IMG/VR virus record: IMGVR_UViG_2778261084_000005
Location: 1-28,897 of that record
Reading direction: 5' to 3' (one strand)
Length of the DNA stretch: 28,897 nucleotides
Source: a virus
Taxonomy: Duplodnaviria > Heunggongvirae > Uroviricota > Caudoviricetes
The notes under the pieces are model-generated. The model was not told the DNA's origin. It saw only the letters and a program-made list of their open reading frames with translations, and did no database searches. Below, one piece after another: positions 1 through 28,897 of this stretch (the first letter of the stretch is position 1; each line of letters opens with the position of its first letter). The translations under genes were made by a program, and so were the position numbers.

Positions 1-1236
1 CTATGATAACCGCGCATTCAACATGGCTACCTGTTCGTCGTTCATGTCATCAATCCACATACCGTAAATTTCATACACCATCTGCGCAGTTTCATGCCCC
101 ATTTGGCTGGCTATAAATGCCGGGTTCGCTCCTGCCGTCAACAGCCAGCAGGCAAAAGTATGCCGCGTATGGTACGGATTACGGCGGCGAATACCAGCAC
201 GTTTTACTGCTGCATTCCACCTTGCCCCCAAACTGCTTACCGAGTAATAAGGTTTTTGTTTTCCGTTACACACCCTGGGCATGAAAACAAAATGCAGTTT
301 TTGCTTTTCGGTTCTGCCGTACTCCCGATGATAAAAGGTGATTTCGCTTTTGCGATGATGCCCGGTCAGTTTGTATTGCTCCTTCAGTGCTTCAAGAGCA
401 GGCTGCAGTAGTGTTACCGTCCGGATCCCCGCATTTGTTTTTGGGGGACCGAACATATCCAGTATCGTCAGGTTTCTTCTGACATTCACAACTCCCTTCT
501 CGAAATCCACATCCTCCCACGCCAGAGCAGCCAGTTCCCCGTGACGAAGCCCGGAGTATACGGCAAATTTCCACAAGTTCTGGCTCTGTCCTTTTTCACT
601 TTCCATTAATGCATTGAATTCTGTTTTAGATAACGGGTCAGGCTTTATTCTGTTTCTCTGTAATTTCTTTACTCCTTCAAATGGTTTGGTTGATATAAAT
701 CCCGACTGATACGCAAAACGTAACAACGAACAGAGCAGGGCGATATAGTTATCAACTGTGCGCACGGTTCTTCCTTTTTTGTTGGATCTTGGATTATCCA
801 GGTAAAGCGTTTCTCCATGCAGCAGTTCATTCCGGTAGTTTAAGATATCGCTATAACGAATATGCGATATCGGAGTACTCTCACAAATTATTATCCTGAG
901 TGTTTTTAATTGTGATTTCGTTTTCTTCATTGTGTTTGTTGTTAACTCTGTTTCTTTAATTTTTGTCCAGATATCACAAAGCTCCCCGAACGTTTTTATG
1001 ACCCTCGTTGTCACCATTTTTGCCCCAGTGCTGGACTGGGGAAAACGTCTTAAATACTCAAACTCACCGGAATTGATTTCATGAACTATCAACGCTCTTA
1101 AATTCCCGGCTTTTTTAATGTTACTGTTAGTAACCTCCCAGCCTTTCAATGTTTCCCGACATCGTTTTCCTCGAAACATGAACCAGATGCGAATGTATTT
1201 ACCTCGAATCTCGACACCTGTTGGTAATTTAGACAT
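1..1236 (-). CDS. intR: Phage integrase, tyrosine recombinase family (411 aa)
   Basis: Full-length ORF with stop at 1-3. Size, position at prophage end and C-terminal catalytic region (RHTFACWLL...YEIYGMW) fit lambda-type integrases; recalled as Rac IntR. Confidence 0.9.
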   Translation of the reverse strand: MSKLPTGVEIRGKYIRIWFMFRGKRCRETLKGWEVTNSNIKKAGNLRALIVHEINSGEFEYLRRFPQSSTGAKMVTTRVIKTFGELCDIWTKIKETELTTNTMKKTKSQLKTLRIIICESTPISHIRYSDILNYRNELLHGETLYLDNPRSNKKGRTVRTVDNYIALLCSLLRFAYQSGFISTKPFEGVKKLQRNRIKPDPLSKTEFNALMESEKGQSQNLWKFAVYSGLRHGELAALAWEDVDFEKGVVNVRRNLTILDMFGPPKTNAGIRTVTLLQPALEALKEQYKLTGHHRKSEITFYHREYGRTEKQKLHFVFMPRVCNGKQKPYYSVSSLGARWNAAVKRAGIRRRNPYHTRHTFACWLLTAGANPAFIASQMGHETAQMVYEIYGMWIDDMNDEQVAMLNARLS

Positions 1237-1552: not shown

Positions 1553-1753
1553 TCACGAGGACTGAAGTTTCTCGCAATTAAAATTTATCAGTTTTACTTT
1601 CTGCTCTCTGGAAACGCCTGCTTCTTTTTTACCTGAGAGCATTTTTTCGCATTCTGATTTCGTTAGTTTAGATTTTGAATATCTTGTCCAGTTAGTAGGA
1701 GTGCCACCTTCCTTTTCAATAGTGGCGGTAATTTTATACATGAACACCTCCAT
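1553..1753 (-). CDS. Small prophage protein, YdaC/RcbA-like; start ambiguous (1741, 1753 or 1813)
   Basis: 86-aa ORF in track; its 5' part overlaps the ralR frame, so an internal Met (MEVFMYK or MYKITA) is more likely the real start. Confidence 0.45.
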   Translation of the reverse strand: MEVFMYKITATIEKEGGTPTNWTRYSKSKLTKSECEKMLSGKKEAGVSREQKVKLINFNCEKLQSS

Positions 1754-11963: not shown

Positions 11964-12518
11964 TTAACTATCTAATATTGTGCTAAATCTTTTTATAACC
12001 ATCAAGAATGTTACTACGGTAAAAAAGAAGGATGAGTATGCTAAATAACTGATTATGTAAGCAGGGGTTGCGAAATACCATTTTTTTAATTCACTTGGGG
12101 TTTCTGGGAGAAAATATATTGCAACCGAAAAAATAACTAACGCTACAGATGTTAATATAGCATAAGAAACATTGTGACATAATTGCTCATATACGGTTTT
12201 ATTATTATTTAAAATTATTAGATTTGAACGTGGTTTGTTGTTTTCCTCAATGTCTGAAATTTTAAATACAGTTTTTTGTTTTTGATCGTAGATCATAATA
12301 ACCGCGCTCATTAACAGTGCGGTAGTAATTGCTCCAAAGTTAACAAAAACAGATGCGATAGAGGTTTTCATTATCCCATAGGTAAAACATATGATTAATG
12401 ATAATGTAAGAGGAATAATGAAGTGTATTGCGATGTCTTCGAGTAAAATATTTCCGCGTTGATCCGACATTGTTGTGTAATGTTTTTTTATTACACTCAT
12501 TACGTTAATCTTGTTCAT
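11964..12518 (-). CDS. Polytopic inner-membrane protein, four predicted TM helices (184 aa); downstream gene of candidate defence operon
   Basis: Four hydrophobic stretches of about 21-28 residues with a charged loop between helices 2 and 3; ATG overlaps the upstream gene's TGA (ATGA at 12515-12518); AT-rich. Confidence 0.7.
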   Translation of the reverse strand: MNKINVMSVIKKHYTTMSDQRGNILLEDIAIHFIIPLTLSLIICFTYGIMKTSIASVFVNFGAITTALLMSAVIMIYDQKQKTVFKISDIEENNKPRSNLIILNNNKTVYEQLCHNVSYAILTSVALVIFSVAIYFLPETPSELKKWYFATPAYIISYLAYSSFFFTVVTFLMVIKRFSTILDS

Positions 12519-13447
12519 ATTTTTAATCCCCCATTACCACTATGTAACTCACTTAGTATATCATTCGCAATGATTTTAACTGTGTCATGAAGTGCTTTAA
12601 GATTGGGGATTCCTGTAGATGCGTTTATGTTTAAGTCGTTATCATCTAATTCGGCAGAAATTCCTTTTCTTAAGATGGTGTCGTAATTAAAAATGACTGT
12701 TCTATTGCCTAATTGTAAACTAACTTTTATTGCGTCACACTTATCTTCAATTATTTCTATTATATTTCCTAGTTTTTTGTCTTTTAAGTCTTTAAAACTA
12801 CCAAATACGCCTTGATTTGCTTTTATTACCAAATCGGTTTTGATGTTTGTTTTGTTATTTCCGAATGAATCCGTGATGTCCTTTGGTGCTTTGTAACCTT
12901 GGGCTTTTATTTGTTTTAATTCTGAATCAAGGATGTGTTGGGGGATTTTTTTGTGGCAAAGAGGATTGATTCTCGCTTCAAGTTTATATTTTGTTTTCAA
13001 GTGGTCTAGTAATGCATCAGAGAGTGTGCTGCGAGCAGAAATATTGTCATTAGCGTGAAATGCTATAATCCCTTCTTCTAAATTGTCTGGCAAAAATATT
13101 AAAATGTAACGCTGTTTGAGAGTTACATCGTTGATAGTTGTTGTATAACGTATTTTAGTAAGTTTATCGTCTTTTATTTCACTGCTCTCACCATATTTCC
13201 CAACCTTTACATATCCATATATTACTTGGTTTTGAGCATCAAAGGTGAGTGATGTGTGTTGTTCAAGAGAAACCTTTGTTTTCGAGAGACCAAATTCAAT
13301 AGGTGTGTTTTTATAGCTATTAAAATACTCAACAAATAATTCATATGCTGTTTTTTTATCGCTTAAACCTAGGTTGTTTAGTCTTTTGCTGGTTCGGCTG
13401 CCCTTGTGGGTTAACACACGGAATGAATAGAAGTTAACGCTGTGCAT
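12515..13447 (-). CDS. Soluble protein of unknown function (310 aa); upstream gene of candidate defence operon
   Basis: ORF with AAGGA ribosome-binding site about 9 nt before ATG at 13447; no TM segments; Lys/Asn/Ile-rich; no family recognised by eye. Confidence 0.7.
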   Translation of the reverse strand: MHSVNFYSFRVLTHKGSRTSKRLNNLGLSDKKTAYELFVEYFNSYKNTPIEFGLSKTKVSLEQHTSLTFDAQNQVIYGYVKVGKYGESSEIKDDKLTKIRYTTTINDVTLKQRYILIFLPDNLEEGIIAFHANDNISARSTLSDALLDHLKTKYKLEARINPLCHKKIPQHILDSELKQIKAQGYKAPKDITDSFGNNKTNIKTDLVIKANQGVFGSFKDLKDKKLGNIIEIIEDKCDAIKVSLQLGNRTVIFNYDTILRKGISAELDDNDLNINASTGIPNLKALHDTVKIIANDILSELHSGNGGLKI

Positions 13448-13500: not shown

Positions 13501-13872
13501 CATAAAAGAAAAAGCTACCGCAAGGCGACTCCACCCACAGATAGCTCTTAATTGATTGTTTGTAAAAAATAATACATTAATTATCTTCTGTGTAAAGAGG
13601 GAAACAGCCTTAGGGTAAGGGACACGAGTTGGGGGGACTGGTGAAATTTGCGTTGAGGATAAAACGATTTGCGGGAAAAGGATAGTTAAGTAGAATTGCT
13701 GCGGGTGCTTGAGGCTGTCTGCCTCGGGCATGAACACCAAAGGCAGATAGAGAAAAGCCCCAGTTAACATTACGCGTCCGGCAAGACGCTTAACATTAAT
13801 CTGAGGCCACATCTATGCTTTGCATACGTAGATTAGCCTCTTACCGACCAAAAGGTCAAGGAGAAGCAGGTT

Positions 13873-14028
13873 ATGAAGCAGCAAAAGGCGATGTTAATCA
13901 CCCTGATCGTCATCTGTTTAACCGTTATAGTGACGGTACTGGTAACGAGGAAAGACCTCTGCGAGGTACGAATCCGAACCGACCAGACGGAGGTCGCTGT
14001 CTTCACAGCTTACGAACTTGGGGAGTAA
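13873..14028 (+). CDS. hok: Hok/Gef-family type I toxin (51 aa)
   Basis: Own translation MKQQKAMLITLIVICLTVIVTVLVTRKDLCEVRIRTDQTEVAVFTAYELGE; AAGGAG site upstream. Overlapping mok-like leader ORF starts at 13815 and now runs into IS186. Confidence 0.85.
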   Translation: MKQQKAMLITLIVICLTVIVTVLVTRKDLCEVRIRTDQTEVAVFTAYELGE

Positions 14029-14040
14029 GAGGACCAGCGG

Positions 14041-14050
14041 GGAGAAATCC
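14041..14050. repeat. IS186 target-site duplication, left copy (GGAGAAATCC)
   Basis: Identical 10-mer at 15390-15399 immediately outside the other IS end. Confidence 0.8.
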
Positions 14051-15389
14051 CATAAGCGCTAACTTAAGGGTTGAACCATCTGAAGAATGCGACGCCTCGG
14101 TGCCTCGTTAAGACGATGCCTCGCGTTCTTCAATTGCGTTTTGTAGGCTGTCAGGGATACTGTCCCACGAATGGCCACCTGTAAGCTCCAGATGACCATT
14201 TTTGTTATTCTCCACAACGAGTTAGTTCTTCTTTTCGGATCCGGCACTTCTGGGGGGGAAATCCAGCGATGGCTGGATTATGTCGTCAATTAAAAATGCG
14301 GCGAGTAGATTAGCAAATATCCACGCTTTCGCGAGTTCAGGTTCCTTTGCACGCAAAGCATCCAGGTGCAGCAAACTTTTGAGCCGCTTAAAAGCCAGTT
14401 CAATTTGCCATCGCAGACGGTAACAATCAGCCACTTGCTCTGCTGAATATTCATCTTCCGGTAATGATGTTAGCAATAGCACATGGCCCGCTGCTTCCAG
14501 CGTTTCCGCCTGAACTACTCGTCCTTTTCGACGATTCTCGCTGAGCAGTCGGGTTTTACTGATTAATGCTTTTTCGGGAGGAAGTGATACGGCAATGAGA
14601 CGTGCCGGAAAGGGAGCTCCGGCTTTTTTATTACCTGAATTGCCTATCATTACAGTGGTTTCACCGTTCTTACCGCAATCCAGCCCGCGCAGAAAACCCA
14701 TCATGTCAAAGCGCATTCCTTCTGCAGTTAACCAGCGCAATCCTCGCCAGTGAACCCGGACGATATAATCAGCTTCTCCAAAAGCAAGTGAGCGGATACA
14801 TTCGGGACGCGAACCGAATCCCCGGTCAGCAATGCGTATCTCGTCTGCCGTTTGCGCAAATCGGTCCAGCCGTTCAGCGTCTCTGCTGTCGGTTAGCTCA
14901 AAATCAGTGAACTGACAGGTATGAGGATCATATCCCATATGTAGTCGCCATTCAGCGCTGCCGCCCCCGGGCGCACTGATTGCTGTTCCATCGACAAGAC
15001 GCAATCTCTTTCCGCTTGTACAACCCGTAACTGCGGCGCGTACAGCAAGTGTTTGTGCGGCAAGTATGCCAAACCAGTCGGCGGCATTCCGCAGCCGCTT
15101 CAGGAGAGCCACGTCAGATAATGTTGCAACGTCATGGAGCTGAGCCCATGCAGTGACTTCACGTAATGACATCCCCCCGGGGCCGTAAGCCAGCCCCAGA
15201 CGTAGCAGAGTTGCAGCATCACGAATTTCGCGGCGGCGGGTTAGAGCCCCGGCATTACGTGCCGAAGTATCCAGTTCTTCGGGCTTACCAATATGGGCCA
15301 GAATTGCTGACCAGTTATCGTGAGAGTAATTCATCGGCACGTTAAATCATATCAGGCGTAATACCACAACCCTTAAGTTAGCGCTTATG
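14051..15389 (-). mobile_element. IS186 (IS4 family), 1339 bp, complete
   Basis: Terminal inverted repeats CATAAGCGCTAACTTAAGGGTTG at 14051-14073 and reverse complement at 15367-15389; single transposase ORF. Confidence 0.9.
14222..15334 (-). CDS. insL: IS186 transposase (370 aa from MNYSHDNW)
   Basis: Translation matches recalled InsL essentially along its length. Confidence 0.9.
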   Translation of the reverse strand: MNYSHDNWSAILAHIGKPEELDTSARNAGALTRRREIRDAATLLRLGLAYGPGGMSLREVTAWAQLHDVATLSDVALLKRLRNAADWFGILAAQTLAVRAAVTGCTSGKRLRLVDGTAISAPGGGSAEWRLHMGYDPHTCQFTDFELTDSRDAERLDRFAQTADEIRIADRGFGSRPECIRSLAFGEADYIVRVHWRGLRWLTAEGMRFDMMGFLRGLDCGKNGETTVMIGNSGNKKAGAPFPARLIAVSLPPEKALISKTRLLSENRRKGRVVQAETLEAAGHVLLLTSLPEDEYSAEQVADCYRLRWQIELAFKRLKSLLHLDALRAKEPELAKAWIFANLLAAFLIDDIIQPSLDFPPRSAGSEKKN

Positions 15390-15399
15390 GGAGAAATCC
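15390..15399. repeat. IS186 target-site duplication, right copy (GGAGAAATCC)
   Basis: See left copy; the reconstructed empty site is GCGGGGAGAAATCCCCGC. Confidence 0.8.
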
Positions 15400-15840
15400 C
15401 CGCAACCTCTGATGTATTATGCATCCTCAACGCAGCCACAGTTAACCTGATTGGCGGGTTTATTTCATCTGTAAATATTTTTATAAAAATAATGCCCACG
15501 CACAGCATAAAACAAAAAGTATTACAGATAAAAAAGGAACGTAATGTGCAGATTTGTTGTTTTCCATATTTACTCACCTTAATATGATTAATCCTGATAG
15601 GGTTGTTATTTCAGCGGTTTTCAAATGAGATATTATGGTGATCTGACAAATTTGCATAACATTAAAATTTAATTTGTTTAACCGCTTTTAATAATAAGCG
15701 TTGTTTGTATCCCAGCAATCTGTTGTTTGGTTTTTATTCCATTAAGGTGGGGGCTTTACACTGGAACCAGTTTATTTATACTTTATACGTCAGCCTGAAC
15801 AACTGGCATCTGCTGCACTGCGCCATCGAGAGATTGAGAA

Positions 15841-17721: not shown

Positions 17722-18252
17722 GGGCTGGTTTATTGTATGCCAAATGATTATTAAAAAGGTTGTGTTAATAACAAAATCCGAAATAATATGCCTGCATATT
17801 TTTATCTTGCTTATATTCTGCATATTGTGCATAGCAGGCTCATCCCTGCAATCAAAACTGTATGATGAGTATTTTTTGTTTTCCTTTTTTCCAGTCATCT
17901 GATGATGACCTGCTTCTTTTTAATCCGGATCGACATCAGTTTTTTAAGATAATTCCTGCGAGTTATATGCATAAATGCCACAAACTCCGCATTTTATGTG
18001 GTTGGGAGTTGCCGGGCGCGCAGTGAGTTTGCTAAGAAAACTCCTGCATGGTGAATCCCCCTGTGCGGTGGGGTGATACCATTAACCTTTTCTGTCGCCG
18101 ACAGGTATCACGAACATTTTGTTCACCGGGAGGCACCCGGCACCATGTACTTCAATAGATTCTCTCCACATTATGGATATTCTTTCAGAATATCCCACGC
18201 AGACTTTGTGTAAATGTTAACAAATGTGCGTTTTATTTGATCTGATTCGCTG

Positions 18253-19754: not shown

Positions 19755-20251
19755 TGCCTCCATCATTACGAAAAGTCGTTGCTGCTGCTATTGGTGGCGG
19801 AGCAATTGCTATAGCATCAGTGCTAATCACTGGCCCAAGTGGTAACGATGGTCTGGAAGGTGTCAGCTACATACCATACAAAGATATTGTTGGTGTATGG
19901 ACTGTATGTCACGGGCATACAGGAAAAGACATCATGCTCGGTAAAACGTATACCAAAGCAGAATGCAAAGCCCTCCTGAATAAAGACCTTGCCACGGTCG
20001 CCAGACAAATTAACCCGTACATCAAAGTCGATATACCGGAAACAATGCGCGGCGCTCTTTACTCATTCGTTTACAACGTGGGTGCTGGCAATTTCAGAAC
20101 ATCGACGCTTCTTCGCAAAATAAACCAGGGCGATATCAAAGGCGCATGTGATCAGCTACGTCGCTGGACATATGCTGGCGGTAAGCAATGGAAAGGTCTC
20201 ATGACTCGTCGTGAGATTGAGCGTGAAATCTGTTTGTGGGGTCAGCAATGA
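19754..20251 (+). CDS. SAR endolysin, lysozyme family (165 aa)
   Basis: Gly/Ala-rich weakly hydrophobic N-terminal segment ([18 protein letters not shown]) followed by lysozyme-like domain; start overlaps holin stop. Confidence 0.85.
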
Positions 20252-20712
20252 ACAGAGTAACCGCGATTATCTCCGCTCTGGTTATCTGCATCATCGTCTG
20301 CCTGTCATGGGCTGTTAATCATTACCGTGATAACGCCATTACCTACAAAGCCCAGCGCGACAAAAATGCCAGAGAACTGAAGCTGGCGAACGCGGCAATT
20401 ACTGACATGCAGATGCGTCAGCGTGATGTTGCTGCGCTCGATGCAAAATACACGAAGGAGTTAGCTGATGCGAAAGCTGAAAATGATGCTCTGCGTGATG
20501 ATGTTGCCGCTGGTCGTCGTCGGTTGCACATCAAAGCAGTCTGTCAGTCAGTGCGTGAAGCCACCACCGCCTCCGGCGTGGATAATGCAGCCTCCCCCCG
20601 ACTGGCAGACACCGCTGAACGGGATTATTTCACCCTCCGGGAACGACTGGTAATGATGCAGGCCCAACTTGAAGGTGCTCAGCAATACATAACCGAGCAG
20701 TGTTTAAAGTAA
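20248..20712 (+). CDS. Rz-like inner-membrane spanin (154 aa)
   Basis: N-terminal TM helix plus coiled-coil-like periplasmic region; ATGA overlap with endolysin. Confidence 0.8.
20468..20653 (+). CDS. Rz1-like outer-membrane lipoprotein spanin (61 aa), embedded in Rz in +1 frame
   Basis: Signal peptide with lipobox VVGC and proline-rich mature part. Confidence 0.8.
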
Positions 20713-27662: not shown

Positions 27663-28201
27663 AAACGGGGTCCGAAGCCATCCGGGCGCTGGCCATGCAG
27701 ATCCCGGCATTTCGTCAGAAACTGAGCGACGGCTGGTACCAGGTACGCATTGCCGGGCGTGATGCAGGTGAAACCGAATTGTCTGCCCGTCTTAATGAGC
27801 CGCTGGAAAATGGTGCCGTGATCCATATCGTGCCGCGTCTGGCAGGAGCCAAAAGTGGCGGTGTGTTTCAGGCTGTGCTGGGGGCGGCTGTTATGGCGGT
27901 TGCTATATGGATGCCGGGGGTAGGAATTATGGCGAGTAATCTGCTGTTTTCTCTCGGTGCCAGTATGACGCTTGGCGGTGTTGCACAGATGCTGGCCCCT
28001 AAACCCAAAACCCCCCGCACACAGACAACGGATAACGGCAAACAGAATACCTATTTTTCTTCACTGGATAACATGGTTGCCCAGGGCAATGTTCTGCCGG
28101 TTCTGTACGGTGAAATGCGCGTGGGGTCACGCGTGGTTTCTCAGGAGATCAGCACGGCAGATGAAGGGGATGGTGGTCAGGTTGTGGTGATTGGTCGCTG
28201 A
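27599..28201 (+). CDS. Tail assembly protein I-like (200 aa from [10 protein letters not shown])
   Basis: Translation closely matches recalled lambda gpI at both termini. Confidence 0.85.
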
Positions 28202-28220
28202 TGCAAAATGTTTTATGTGA

Positions 28221-28240
28221 AACCGCCTCCGGGCGGTTTT
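28221..28240 (+). terminator. Terminator-like hairpin (AACCGCC-TCCG-GGCGGTT + TTTT) between I and the tail-fibre gene
   Basis: Read from sequence; function uncertain. Confidence 0.35.
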
Positions 28241-28261
28241 ATCGTTTATGGAGCATGACGA

Positions 28262-28897
28262 ATGGGTAAAGGCAGCAGTAAGGGGCATACCCCGCGCGAA
28301 GCGAAGGACAACCTGAAGTCCACGCAGCTGCTGAGTGTGATCGATGCCATCAGCGAAGGGCCGGTTGAAGGTCCGGTGGATGGATTAAAAAGCGTGCTGC
28401 TGAACAGTACGCCGGTGCTGGACAGTGAGGGGAATACCAATATATCCGGCGTCACGGTGGTGTTCCGGGCCGGTGAGCAGGAGCAGACACCGCCGGAGGG
28501 ATTTGAATCCTCCGGCTCCGAGACGGTGCTGGGTACGGAAGTGAAGTACGACACGCCGATTACGAAAACCACATCATCGTTTGATTACGGCACTAAATCC
28601 ACGAATAACACTGGTGCGCATACTCATAGTTTAAGTGGCAGCACGAATGCAGCTGGTAATCACAGCCATAGAGATGGCCGTCGATTTAACCCCAGTGTTT
28701 TTAAAGATACTTATCAATATGGTTATACAAGCTCAGGTCAAAATACCTGGGGTGTACAAGGCTCAGTAGGTATGTCTACGGGGTGGTTAGCTAATACCAG
28801 TACAGATGGTAATCATAGCCACTCACTGTCCGGCACAGCAGCATCTGCAGGTGCACACGCGCATACTGTCGGTATTGGTGCTCATACGCACTCCGTT
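28262..28897 (+). CDS. Tail fibre protein, partial (runs off window): J-like N-terminus fused to side-tail-fibre His-rich repeats
   Basis: First ~100 aa match recalled lambda J N-terminus; then GAHTHSLSG / GNHSH repeat motifs typical of Stf proteins. Confidence 0.7.

Follow-up and report, generated by a model that had tools for sequence, protein, structure and literature searches.

The window analysed here, a 28,897-nt stretch of viral DNA (Caudoviricetes; IMG/VR record IMGVR_UViG_2778261084_000005) to whose positions all coordinates refer, carries a hok toxin locus of the hok/mok/sok type, into which a complete copy of the insertion sequence IS186 has entered downstream of the hok stop codon. 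The locus belongs to the nin region of a Rac-like prophage rather than to the core chromosome, and is a further Rac-type, hokD-like case of a known and recurrent event. With a probability of about 0.8, IS186 was inserted into the conserved hairpin of the hok mRNA and severed the fold-back inhibitory element (fbi) and the terminator from it, with the expected loss of both the dormant mRNA pool and post-segregational killing. Although the hok gene itself has been preserved, the 3' module that regulates it is cut off, and for this reason the locus should not be listed among the functional addiction modules of the prophage; the finding matters mainly for annotation. This reading joins two known facts, the target motif of IS186 and the presence of IS elements beside hok genes. 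What is added is the explicit link between the hok hairpin and the IS186 motif; the pattern of hot spots was already contained in population surveys (bioRxiv 527788).

Identification of IS186 and of its empty site

The IS186 copy (IS4 family, named IS421 by PGAP) occupies positions 14051 to 15389 on the minus strand. It measures 1339 bp, shares 100% identity with IS186A and with IS186B of Escherichia coli K-12, and is bounded by perfect terminal inverted repeats of 23 bp (14051-14073 and 15367-15389; chance expectation 0). The insL transposase gene (14222-15334, minus strand) is convergent with hok, and its product of 370 aa is identical to K-12 InsL1 and matches both Pfam DDE_Tnp_1 (E=1.6e-26) and the NCBIfam model of the IS4 transposase (133.3 bits; cutoff 115). 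By the identity to the K-12 copies and by the inverted repeats, the complete IS186 that the original prediction had placed 22 bp past the hok stop is confirmed, as is its perfect 10-bp direct duplication, GGAGAAATCC, at 14041-14050 and 15390-15399. The left copy of the duplication is included in the 5' arm and loop of a GC hairpin that follows the stop codon (GCGGGGAGAAATCC, 14037-14050, plus strand), as recognised from its fold and its conservation. The right copy runs into the 3' arm of the same hairpin, CCCCGC at 15398-15403 (together 15390-15403, plus strand), as recognised by comparison with the empty site. Since the ends of IS186 (CC-CAT...ATG-GG) merge with the G and C residues of the target, a 10-bp duplication around an IS of 1339 bp is equivalent to a 6-bp core, AGAAAT, around an IS of 1343 bp.

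Upon deletion of IS186 and one copy of the repeat, the empty site GCGGGGAGAAATCCCCGC was restored. The reconstructed locus aligned with the uninterrupted allele of strain ET201, which shares the prophage context with the window, over 1452 bp without a gap and with only two mismatches, at positions 13638 and 13871. Among the 5426 complete E. coli genomes over which all occurrences were counted, the uninterrupted locus is present in 519; these genomes and the ET201 allele verify the GGGG-N6-CCCC hairpin that had been expected after removal of IS186. The identical interrupted arrangement, including both flanks, was found in 39 genomes, and IS186 in the opposite orientation at this same locus in six, as was seen directly by comparison of the loci L056 and L057; at L060, exact matching did not find the ends of the IS.

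The target at the empty site, GGGGAGAAATCCCC, fits the motif GGGG(N6/N7)CCCC known for IS186, and single GGGG(N6)CCCC sites have been struck repeatedly by IS186 in both orientations (PMC5009759). In the window from which IS186 was removed, the hairpin is the sole GGGG(N6/N7)CCCC site, the chance expectation for the N6 form being 0.16. Probes of 600 nt, each composed of 300 nt of hok and 300 nt of IS186, detected the hok-IS186 junction in 818 genomes in the orientation of the window and in 935 genomes in the opposite orientation, counts in which several hok loci, K-12-type hokC included, are pooled.

Conservation of the hok hairpin and the elements beyond it

The mRNAs of the hok family carry a GC hairpin about 10 nt past the stop codon. 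The eight genera Escherichia, Shigella, Kluyvera, Citrobacter, Pseudocitrobacter, Photorhabdus, Pantoea, and Erwinia contributed 26 distinct hok loci to an alignment in which this hairpin was paired in 99.5% of cells and two of its pairs were changed on both sides. In a survey of 49 hok loci, taken from one genome per species, an element complementary to tac, the 5'-terminal segment of the mRNA, was identified 44-56 nt past the stop codon in 30 or more loci, always downstream of the hairpin. The first six tac-fbi pairs are conserved among the 26 loci, one pair being U-A in 16 loci and C-G in eight as a compensatory change, and when the partner columns were slid against each other the pairing fell from 92% to 45-57%.

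The fbi of the window was located at 15425-15437 (plus strand) as CCTCAACGCAGCC, which is complementary to tac. The likely natural terminator of hok follows at 15444-15470 (plus strand), where AACCTGATTGGCGGGTT precedes a T-rich tail; a scan identified a terminator-like hairpin at 15444-15460, and AACCCGCTTCGGCGGGTTTTT is the positional homologue of the site in canonical hokD. As both fbi and the terminator lie beyond the hairpin, IS186 separates them from the rest of the hok mRNA, and they are now situated 1349 bp further downstream than in the intact allele. The hok 3' region is therefore split, as had been proposed. The structure entered by IS186, which the original prediction called the 3' hairpin of hok, is indeed a hairpin conserved among the 26 loci, but it is an internal element after the stop codon and not the terminal hairpin of the transcript, with fbi and the terminator lying beyond it. 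Intact homologous loci thus possess the GC hairpin, and the positions of the conserved fbi and terminator speak against a hok transcript that normally ends upstream of 14040.

Because the conserved hairpin of hok carries the motif of IS186, the module represents a built-in IS186 target, and an RNA hairpin that is conserved across Enterobacterales and doubles as a target of transposition explains why hok loci are recurrent hot spots.

Predicted effect of the insertion on the hok transcript

In hok of plasmid R1, the pairing of tac with fbi holds the full-length mRNA inert, and slow trimming from the 3' end gives rise to the tac-ucb stem, by which translation of mok and hok and binding of Sok become possible (PMC9841398, in which the dcb element is also described). 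The intact hok mRNA was reconstructed by joining 13703-14050 to 15400-15466 and folded; its 5' end, GGGUGCUUGAGG (tac), paired with CCUCAACGCAGCC (fbi, 15425-15437) with a probability of about 0.99, and the hairpin after the stop codon was also formed. The interrupted transcript was folded with five assumed 3' ends between 14050 and 14632, and for four of these tac paired with ucb (13755-13761), the open form, with probabilities of 0.78-0.98. A contiguous tac-fbi mRNA of about 400 nt is present in the reconstructed allele and disrupted in the window. With fbi split off by IS186 and the predicted fold changed to tac-ucb, the locus should be regarded as a disrupted member of the hok family.

The course of events is probably the following. 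One active-looking IS186 entered a type I toxin-antitoxin module (hok/mok/sok, of the hokD type) that belongs to the nin region of the Rac-like lambdoid prophage. IS186 recognises the sequence GGGG(N6/N7)CCCC, which the hok mRNA carries as its conserved hairpin. The putative hok promoter, tac, ucb, the putative sok gene, the mok start, and the hok open reading frame were all left untouched, and the fused hok transcript would end somewhere inside IS186. Through the loss of fbi, this transcript would fold directly into the open tac-ucb form, which should be translatable but also bound by Sok and degraded, so that the dormant reservoir of mRNA and, with it, post-segregational killing would be lost. 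The cell should stay protected as long as Sok is made.

Several observations weigh against this interpretation. For the assumed 3' end at 14137, tac paired with the inverted repeat of IS186 and not with ucb. A G.G mismatch is present in the fbi of this allele, and the hairpin of the allele has one pair fewer than the consensus; both features are shared by the allele of ET201. A generic scan for promoter consensus sequences flagged neither the hok nor the sok promoter, and both were placed by alignment to hokC and to hokD of P1-like elements. Intact chromosomal hokA, hokB, and hokC reportedly gave no post-segregational killing (bioRxiv 2025.08.07.668861), and the intact allele may thus have had little to lose. 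Finally, K-12 gef (hokC), which bears an identical insertion, reportedly remains active in transcription, gives an mRNA that ends within IS186, and stays under antisense control (PMC3562002). That chromosomal hok loci are commonly hit in this manner, as was claimed for E. coli, holds for K-12 hokC and hokE and agrees with the reported inactivation of K-12 hok loci by IS elements and other lesions (PMC2654758) and with a report of hok/sok homologues adjacent to hot spots of insertion in E. coli and Klebsiella pneumoniae (bioRxiv 527788). Their description as inactivated stays presumptive and, in view of the reported activity of gef, may be too strong.

Alternative interpretations

The reported activity of gef is an argument for an insertion that is neutral or re-tunes the locus, in which hok is transcribed up to an end in IS186, is kept in check by Sok, and forms with it a working pair used, for example, in stress or phage responses. 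Such a pair is possible, although we consider it clearly less probable than the loss of the dormant pool. The hok open reading frame, the mok start, the leader, and the sok region differ from those of ET201 only at 13871, which indicates the absence of decay since the insertion of IS186, and chromosomal Hok peptides are toxic when expressed (bioRxiv 2025.08.07.668861). Against a neutral insertion stand the physical removal of the conserved fbi and terminator from the transcript and the predicted switch to the open fold, and the R1 mechanism needs fbi for a stable inert pool (PMC9841398).

The main consequence might instead concern the prophage, if internal terminators of IS186 block rightward delayed-early transcription and help to lock in a defective Rac-like prophage. 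IS186 is indeed situated between the DUF977 and ydaV genes of the replication region and the downstream genes ninB, DUF1364, and the Q-like DUF1133 gene. It contains a rightward terminator-like site at 14604-14623, and the prophage has other lesions: IS5 interrupts its portal gene, and its Rz gene is a pseudogene. This view is nevertheless unlikely, being drawn from gene order alone, and antiterminated transcription of lambdoid phages usually passes such terminators. In addition, the same hairpin has been struck in hokC and hokE, which are not in prophages, and target preference alone therefore explains the site of insertion.

An association of IS186 with hok that goes beyond target preference is likewise doubtful; it would imply either selection for the disarming of addiction modules (anti-addiction) or a role of hok loci as safe havens for IS186. 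If true, it would account for the hundreds of E. coli genomes whose hok hairpin is occupied by IS186, in both orientations and at no fewer than five distinct loci, and in which the toxin gene is invariably intact.

A single ancestral hok-IS186 junction, for example that of hokC, which was then spread by recombination between hok paralogues, was considered because the window and K-12 hokC agree in the position of IS186 (22 nt) and in its orientation, and because the IS186 copies are 100% identical. The duplications, however, match the loop of their own locus in each case (AGAAAT, AGTGAT, AGTAAT, AGAGAT, or GAGAAT), both orientations occur at one locus between the same flanking genes (L056 against L057; L058 against L059), and the flanks are locus-specific on both sides, with exact empty sites in existence. 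These observations altogether argue for repeated independent insertions, and the spread of one junction was rejected as very improbable.

Equally improbable, and also rejected, is a surrogate fbi supplied by IS186 itself at 14093-14106 (CGCCTCGGTGCCTC), 43 nt inside its left end, which would keep the fused mRNA closed: its duplex with tac (-17.9 kcal/mol) is about as stable as that of the natural fbi of this allele (-18.0 kcal/mol) and the orientation of IS186 is the same in the window and in K-12 hokC, but 4.5% of random 87-nt windows from the region pair with tac equally well or better, the pairing is unused in the minimum-energy and ensemble folds with all five 3' ends, and IS186 in the opposite orientation, which is about equally common at hok loci, lacks the segment (-10.6 kcal/mol).

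Comparison with known hok loci and IS186 hot spots

A close parallel is found in the K-12 hokC (gef)/mokC/sokC locus, where IS186A lies 22 nt past the stop codon in the homologous GGGG-N6-CCCC hairpin GGCGGGGAGTGATCCCCGCC. The orientation is the same, with the transposase gene convergent with hok, the duplication is again 10 bp (GGAGTGATCC), and the hokC fbi (CTTCAACGCACCC) and terminator are displaced behind IS186; the junction regions of the two loci share about 90% DNA identity. K-12 hokC differs from the locus in the window, however, in its location in the core chromosome between dnaJ and nhaA, as opposed to the nin region of a Rac-like prophage, in the sequence of the loop and duplication (AGTGAT in place of AGAAAT), and in its toxin of 50 aa, which is 77-79% identical to Hok of the window. 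Furthermore, K-12 mokC shares the reading frame of hokC, whereas mok of the window is in the +1 frame, as in R1. At K-12 hokE/sokE, IS186B is inserted in the hairpin after the stop codon (GCGGGGAGTAATCCCCGC), 21 nt past the stop, with a 10-bp duplication GGAGTAATCC; this locus, between ybdK and entD, is distinguished by the opposite orientation of IS186 and by a far more divergent toxin sequence.

With respect to the toxin, the closest relatives (90%) are hokD (relF) of Qin-type prophages and of P1-like phage-plasmids, which also share the prophage nin-type setting. The Qin-like hokD has been hit by IS186 as well, in both orientations and in an imperfect hairpin (GGCGGGGGAGAATCCCTCGCC), and so has hokD of a P1-like plasmid, again in the hairpin, with the duplication GGAGAGATCC. 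Canonical hokD differs from the locus in the window in having the hairpins GGCGGGGGAG(A)AATCCCTCGCC, with an imperfect motif, and in that its mok frame stops before the hok stop, whereas mok of the window passes through the hairpin. The hokD copy of K-12 itself is described as truncated upstream. Hairpins of hok that do not conform to the strict motif (GGGGGAGAATCCCT) were also found to contain IS186, in both orientations, at L058 and L059, both Qin-like hokD, and at L054 of a P1-like plasmid; two of these IS186 copies have frameshifted transposase genes, which suggests older insertions.

The R1 hok/mok/sok locus resembles that of the window in its 5' tac, its ucb, a mok in the +1 frame that overlaps hok, an antisense Sok (putative in the window) opposite the mok start, and a 3' fbi (PMC9841398). 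It is different in being uninterrupted and a proven post-segregational killer, whereas the locus studied here is chromosomal, prophage-borne, and split by an IS.

The IS186 hot spots at fimA and menC in mutation-accumulation lines share with the hok hairpin the target motif, composed of a 6-bp core with G/C flanks, as well as repeated hits in both orientations (PMC5009759). The lon promoter is a further insertion hot spot of IS186. The motif in the window is different from these in that it constitutes a conserved element of RNA structure in a family of toxin mRNAs, and the hot spot is consequently replicated at every hok paralogue.

Organization of the hok/mok/sok module

The hok gene (13873-14028, plus strand) encodes an intact HokD-like toxin of 51 aa, which matches the Pfam family HOK_GEF (PF01848; 74.4 bits, cutoff 22; E=5.3e-21) and is 90% identical to canonical HokD. 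The same protein, WP_021554378.1, is encoded by strain 64EVA (NZ_CP138399.1), in which the locus is interrupted, and by strain ET201 (NZ_CP100994.1), in which it is not. A mok-frame open reading frame of 98 aa (13815-14111, plus strand) starts upstream of hok, overlaps it in the +1 frame, and extends 61 nt inside IS186; its ATG is aligned with the start of K-12 mokC. The open reading frames, the HOK_GEF match, and the mokC alignment bear out the coordinates of hok and of the overlapping mok-like frame from 13815 in the original prediction. Its altered mok end was also found correct, the frame being 82 aa with the C-terminal end ...GRNPRNL* in the intact allele as against 98 aa here. At 14017-14022, this allele and that of ET201 read CTT GGG where canonical hokD reads CCT GAG; the change removes the TGA that ends the canonical mok frame, with the result that intact mok is 82 aa and reads through the hairpin, the positions involved being 14017-14022 and 15400-15412. 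Judged from the presence of its frame and its start, mok may serve as a translationally coupled reading frame for hok. As read from the sequence alone, the Tyr47 codon of hok, TAC, is followed by G (14011-14014) and creates a UACG context; in the hokC, hokD, and hokE mRNAs this context is reportedly subject to A-to-I editing by TadA, by which Tyr is recoded to Cys (bioRxiv 2025.08.07.668861).

A putative hok promoter was placed at 13669-13696 (plus strand), with TTGCGG as -35 (13669-13674), a spacer of 16 nt, and TAGAAT as -10 (13691-13696). The -10 element is aligned with TATAAT of K-12 hokC and TACAAT of P1-like hokD, and lies 6 nt before the conserved 5' end GGGTGCTT. Within the hok mRNA leader (13703-13878, plus strand) lie tac (13703-13714) and ucb (13755-13761), along with the target of Sok, the start of mok, and the Shine-Dalgarno sequence of hok; the partner of tac is fbi when the intact mRNA is folded and ucb when the interrupted one is. 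The leader was detected by Rfam RF01794 with 103.9 bits (E=7.8e-23; gathering score 59). Although this model is named sok antitoxin, its match marks the hok leader and not the Sok strand. An assignment of the match to the antisense RNA itself was rejected by a control with K-12, in which RF01794 (region L003, 1902-2054) matches the strand opposite to the annotated sokC. As RF01794 thus lies on the hok-sense strand, Sok was placed on the minus strand by homology.

The Sok-like antisense RNA would be transcribed from 13750-13823 (minus strand), as judged by homology to K-12 sokC, and would comprise an unpaired 5' tail, one long hairpin, and a tail rich in U. Its 5' end was set from the annotated sokC, whose start faces nucleotide 9 of mokC. 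The predicted fold has an energy of -30.7 kcal/mol (z=-4.85), and none of 200 shuffled sequences was equally stable. The putative sok promoter (13830-13859, minus strand) consists of TTGACC as -35 (13859-13854), a spacer of 18 nt, and TAATCT as -10 (13835-13830), and its region is almost invariant among the window, K-12 hokC, and P1-like hokD. A scan for terminator-like sites flagged none on the minus strand between the insL stop and the hok open reading frame, and it may be speculated that read-out from IS186 adds antisense transcription over hok.

Prophage context of the hok locus

The gene order of the prophage was deduced from the annotation of strain 64EVA in its region of 99.9% identity to the window, an Rfam match to RalA, and a PHROG match to NinB. 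The window represents a Rac-like lambdoid prophage with intR, xisR, ralR, recT/recE, kilR, sieB, a repressor region, ydaV, and hok, followed by IS186, ninB/orf, DUF1364, the Q-like DUF1133 gene, lysis genes, trkG, and terminase. The hok gene is located directly upstream of ninB, and enrichment of hok in prophages has been reported (bioRxiv 2025.08.07.668861). In many genomes the homology to the window starts only at about 13684-13694, inside the putative hok promoter, and at the locus L002, where a Rac remnant ends, hok directly adjoins a chromosomal gene for an MFS transporter. The promoter seems to form the left border of the hok module, which would then be a mosaic unit. Directly to the left of hok, two open reading frames of 143 and 310 aa (12090-13447, minus strand) gave only matches to phrog_15250 and phrog_15676, both of unknown function, and no match in Pfam or among the defence systems of PADLOC. 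This slot is occupied by a gene for a nucleoid-associated protein at L056 and L057 and by DUF5677 at L060, and thus looks like a variable moron slot.

The IS5 transposase gene that interrupts the portal (DUF4055) gene (27697-28665, minus strand) and an internal stop in the Rz-like lysis gene of the 64EVA annotation (20248-20712 in the window) indicate that the prophage is defective independently of IS186. A second type I toxin-antitoxin pair is carried by the same prophage at 992-1186 (minus strand) and 1557-1735 (plus strand); ralR is annotated in the corresponding region of 64EVA, and the match to the RalA antitoxin small RNA (Rfam RF02694, 225 bits) is full-length. An Rfam match to STnc100 (83.4 bits) was detected at 18016-18202 (plus strand), flanked by the Q-like DUF1133 gene on one side and by the tolA-like and lysis genes on the other, at the position where the leader of the lambdoid late promoter is expected.

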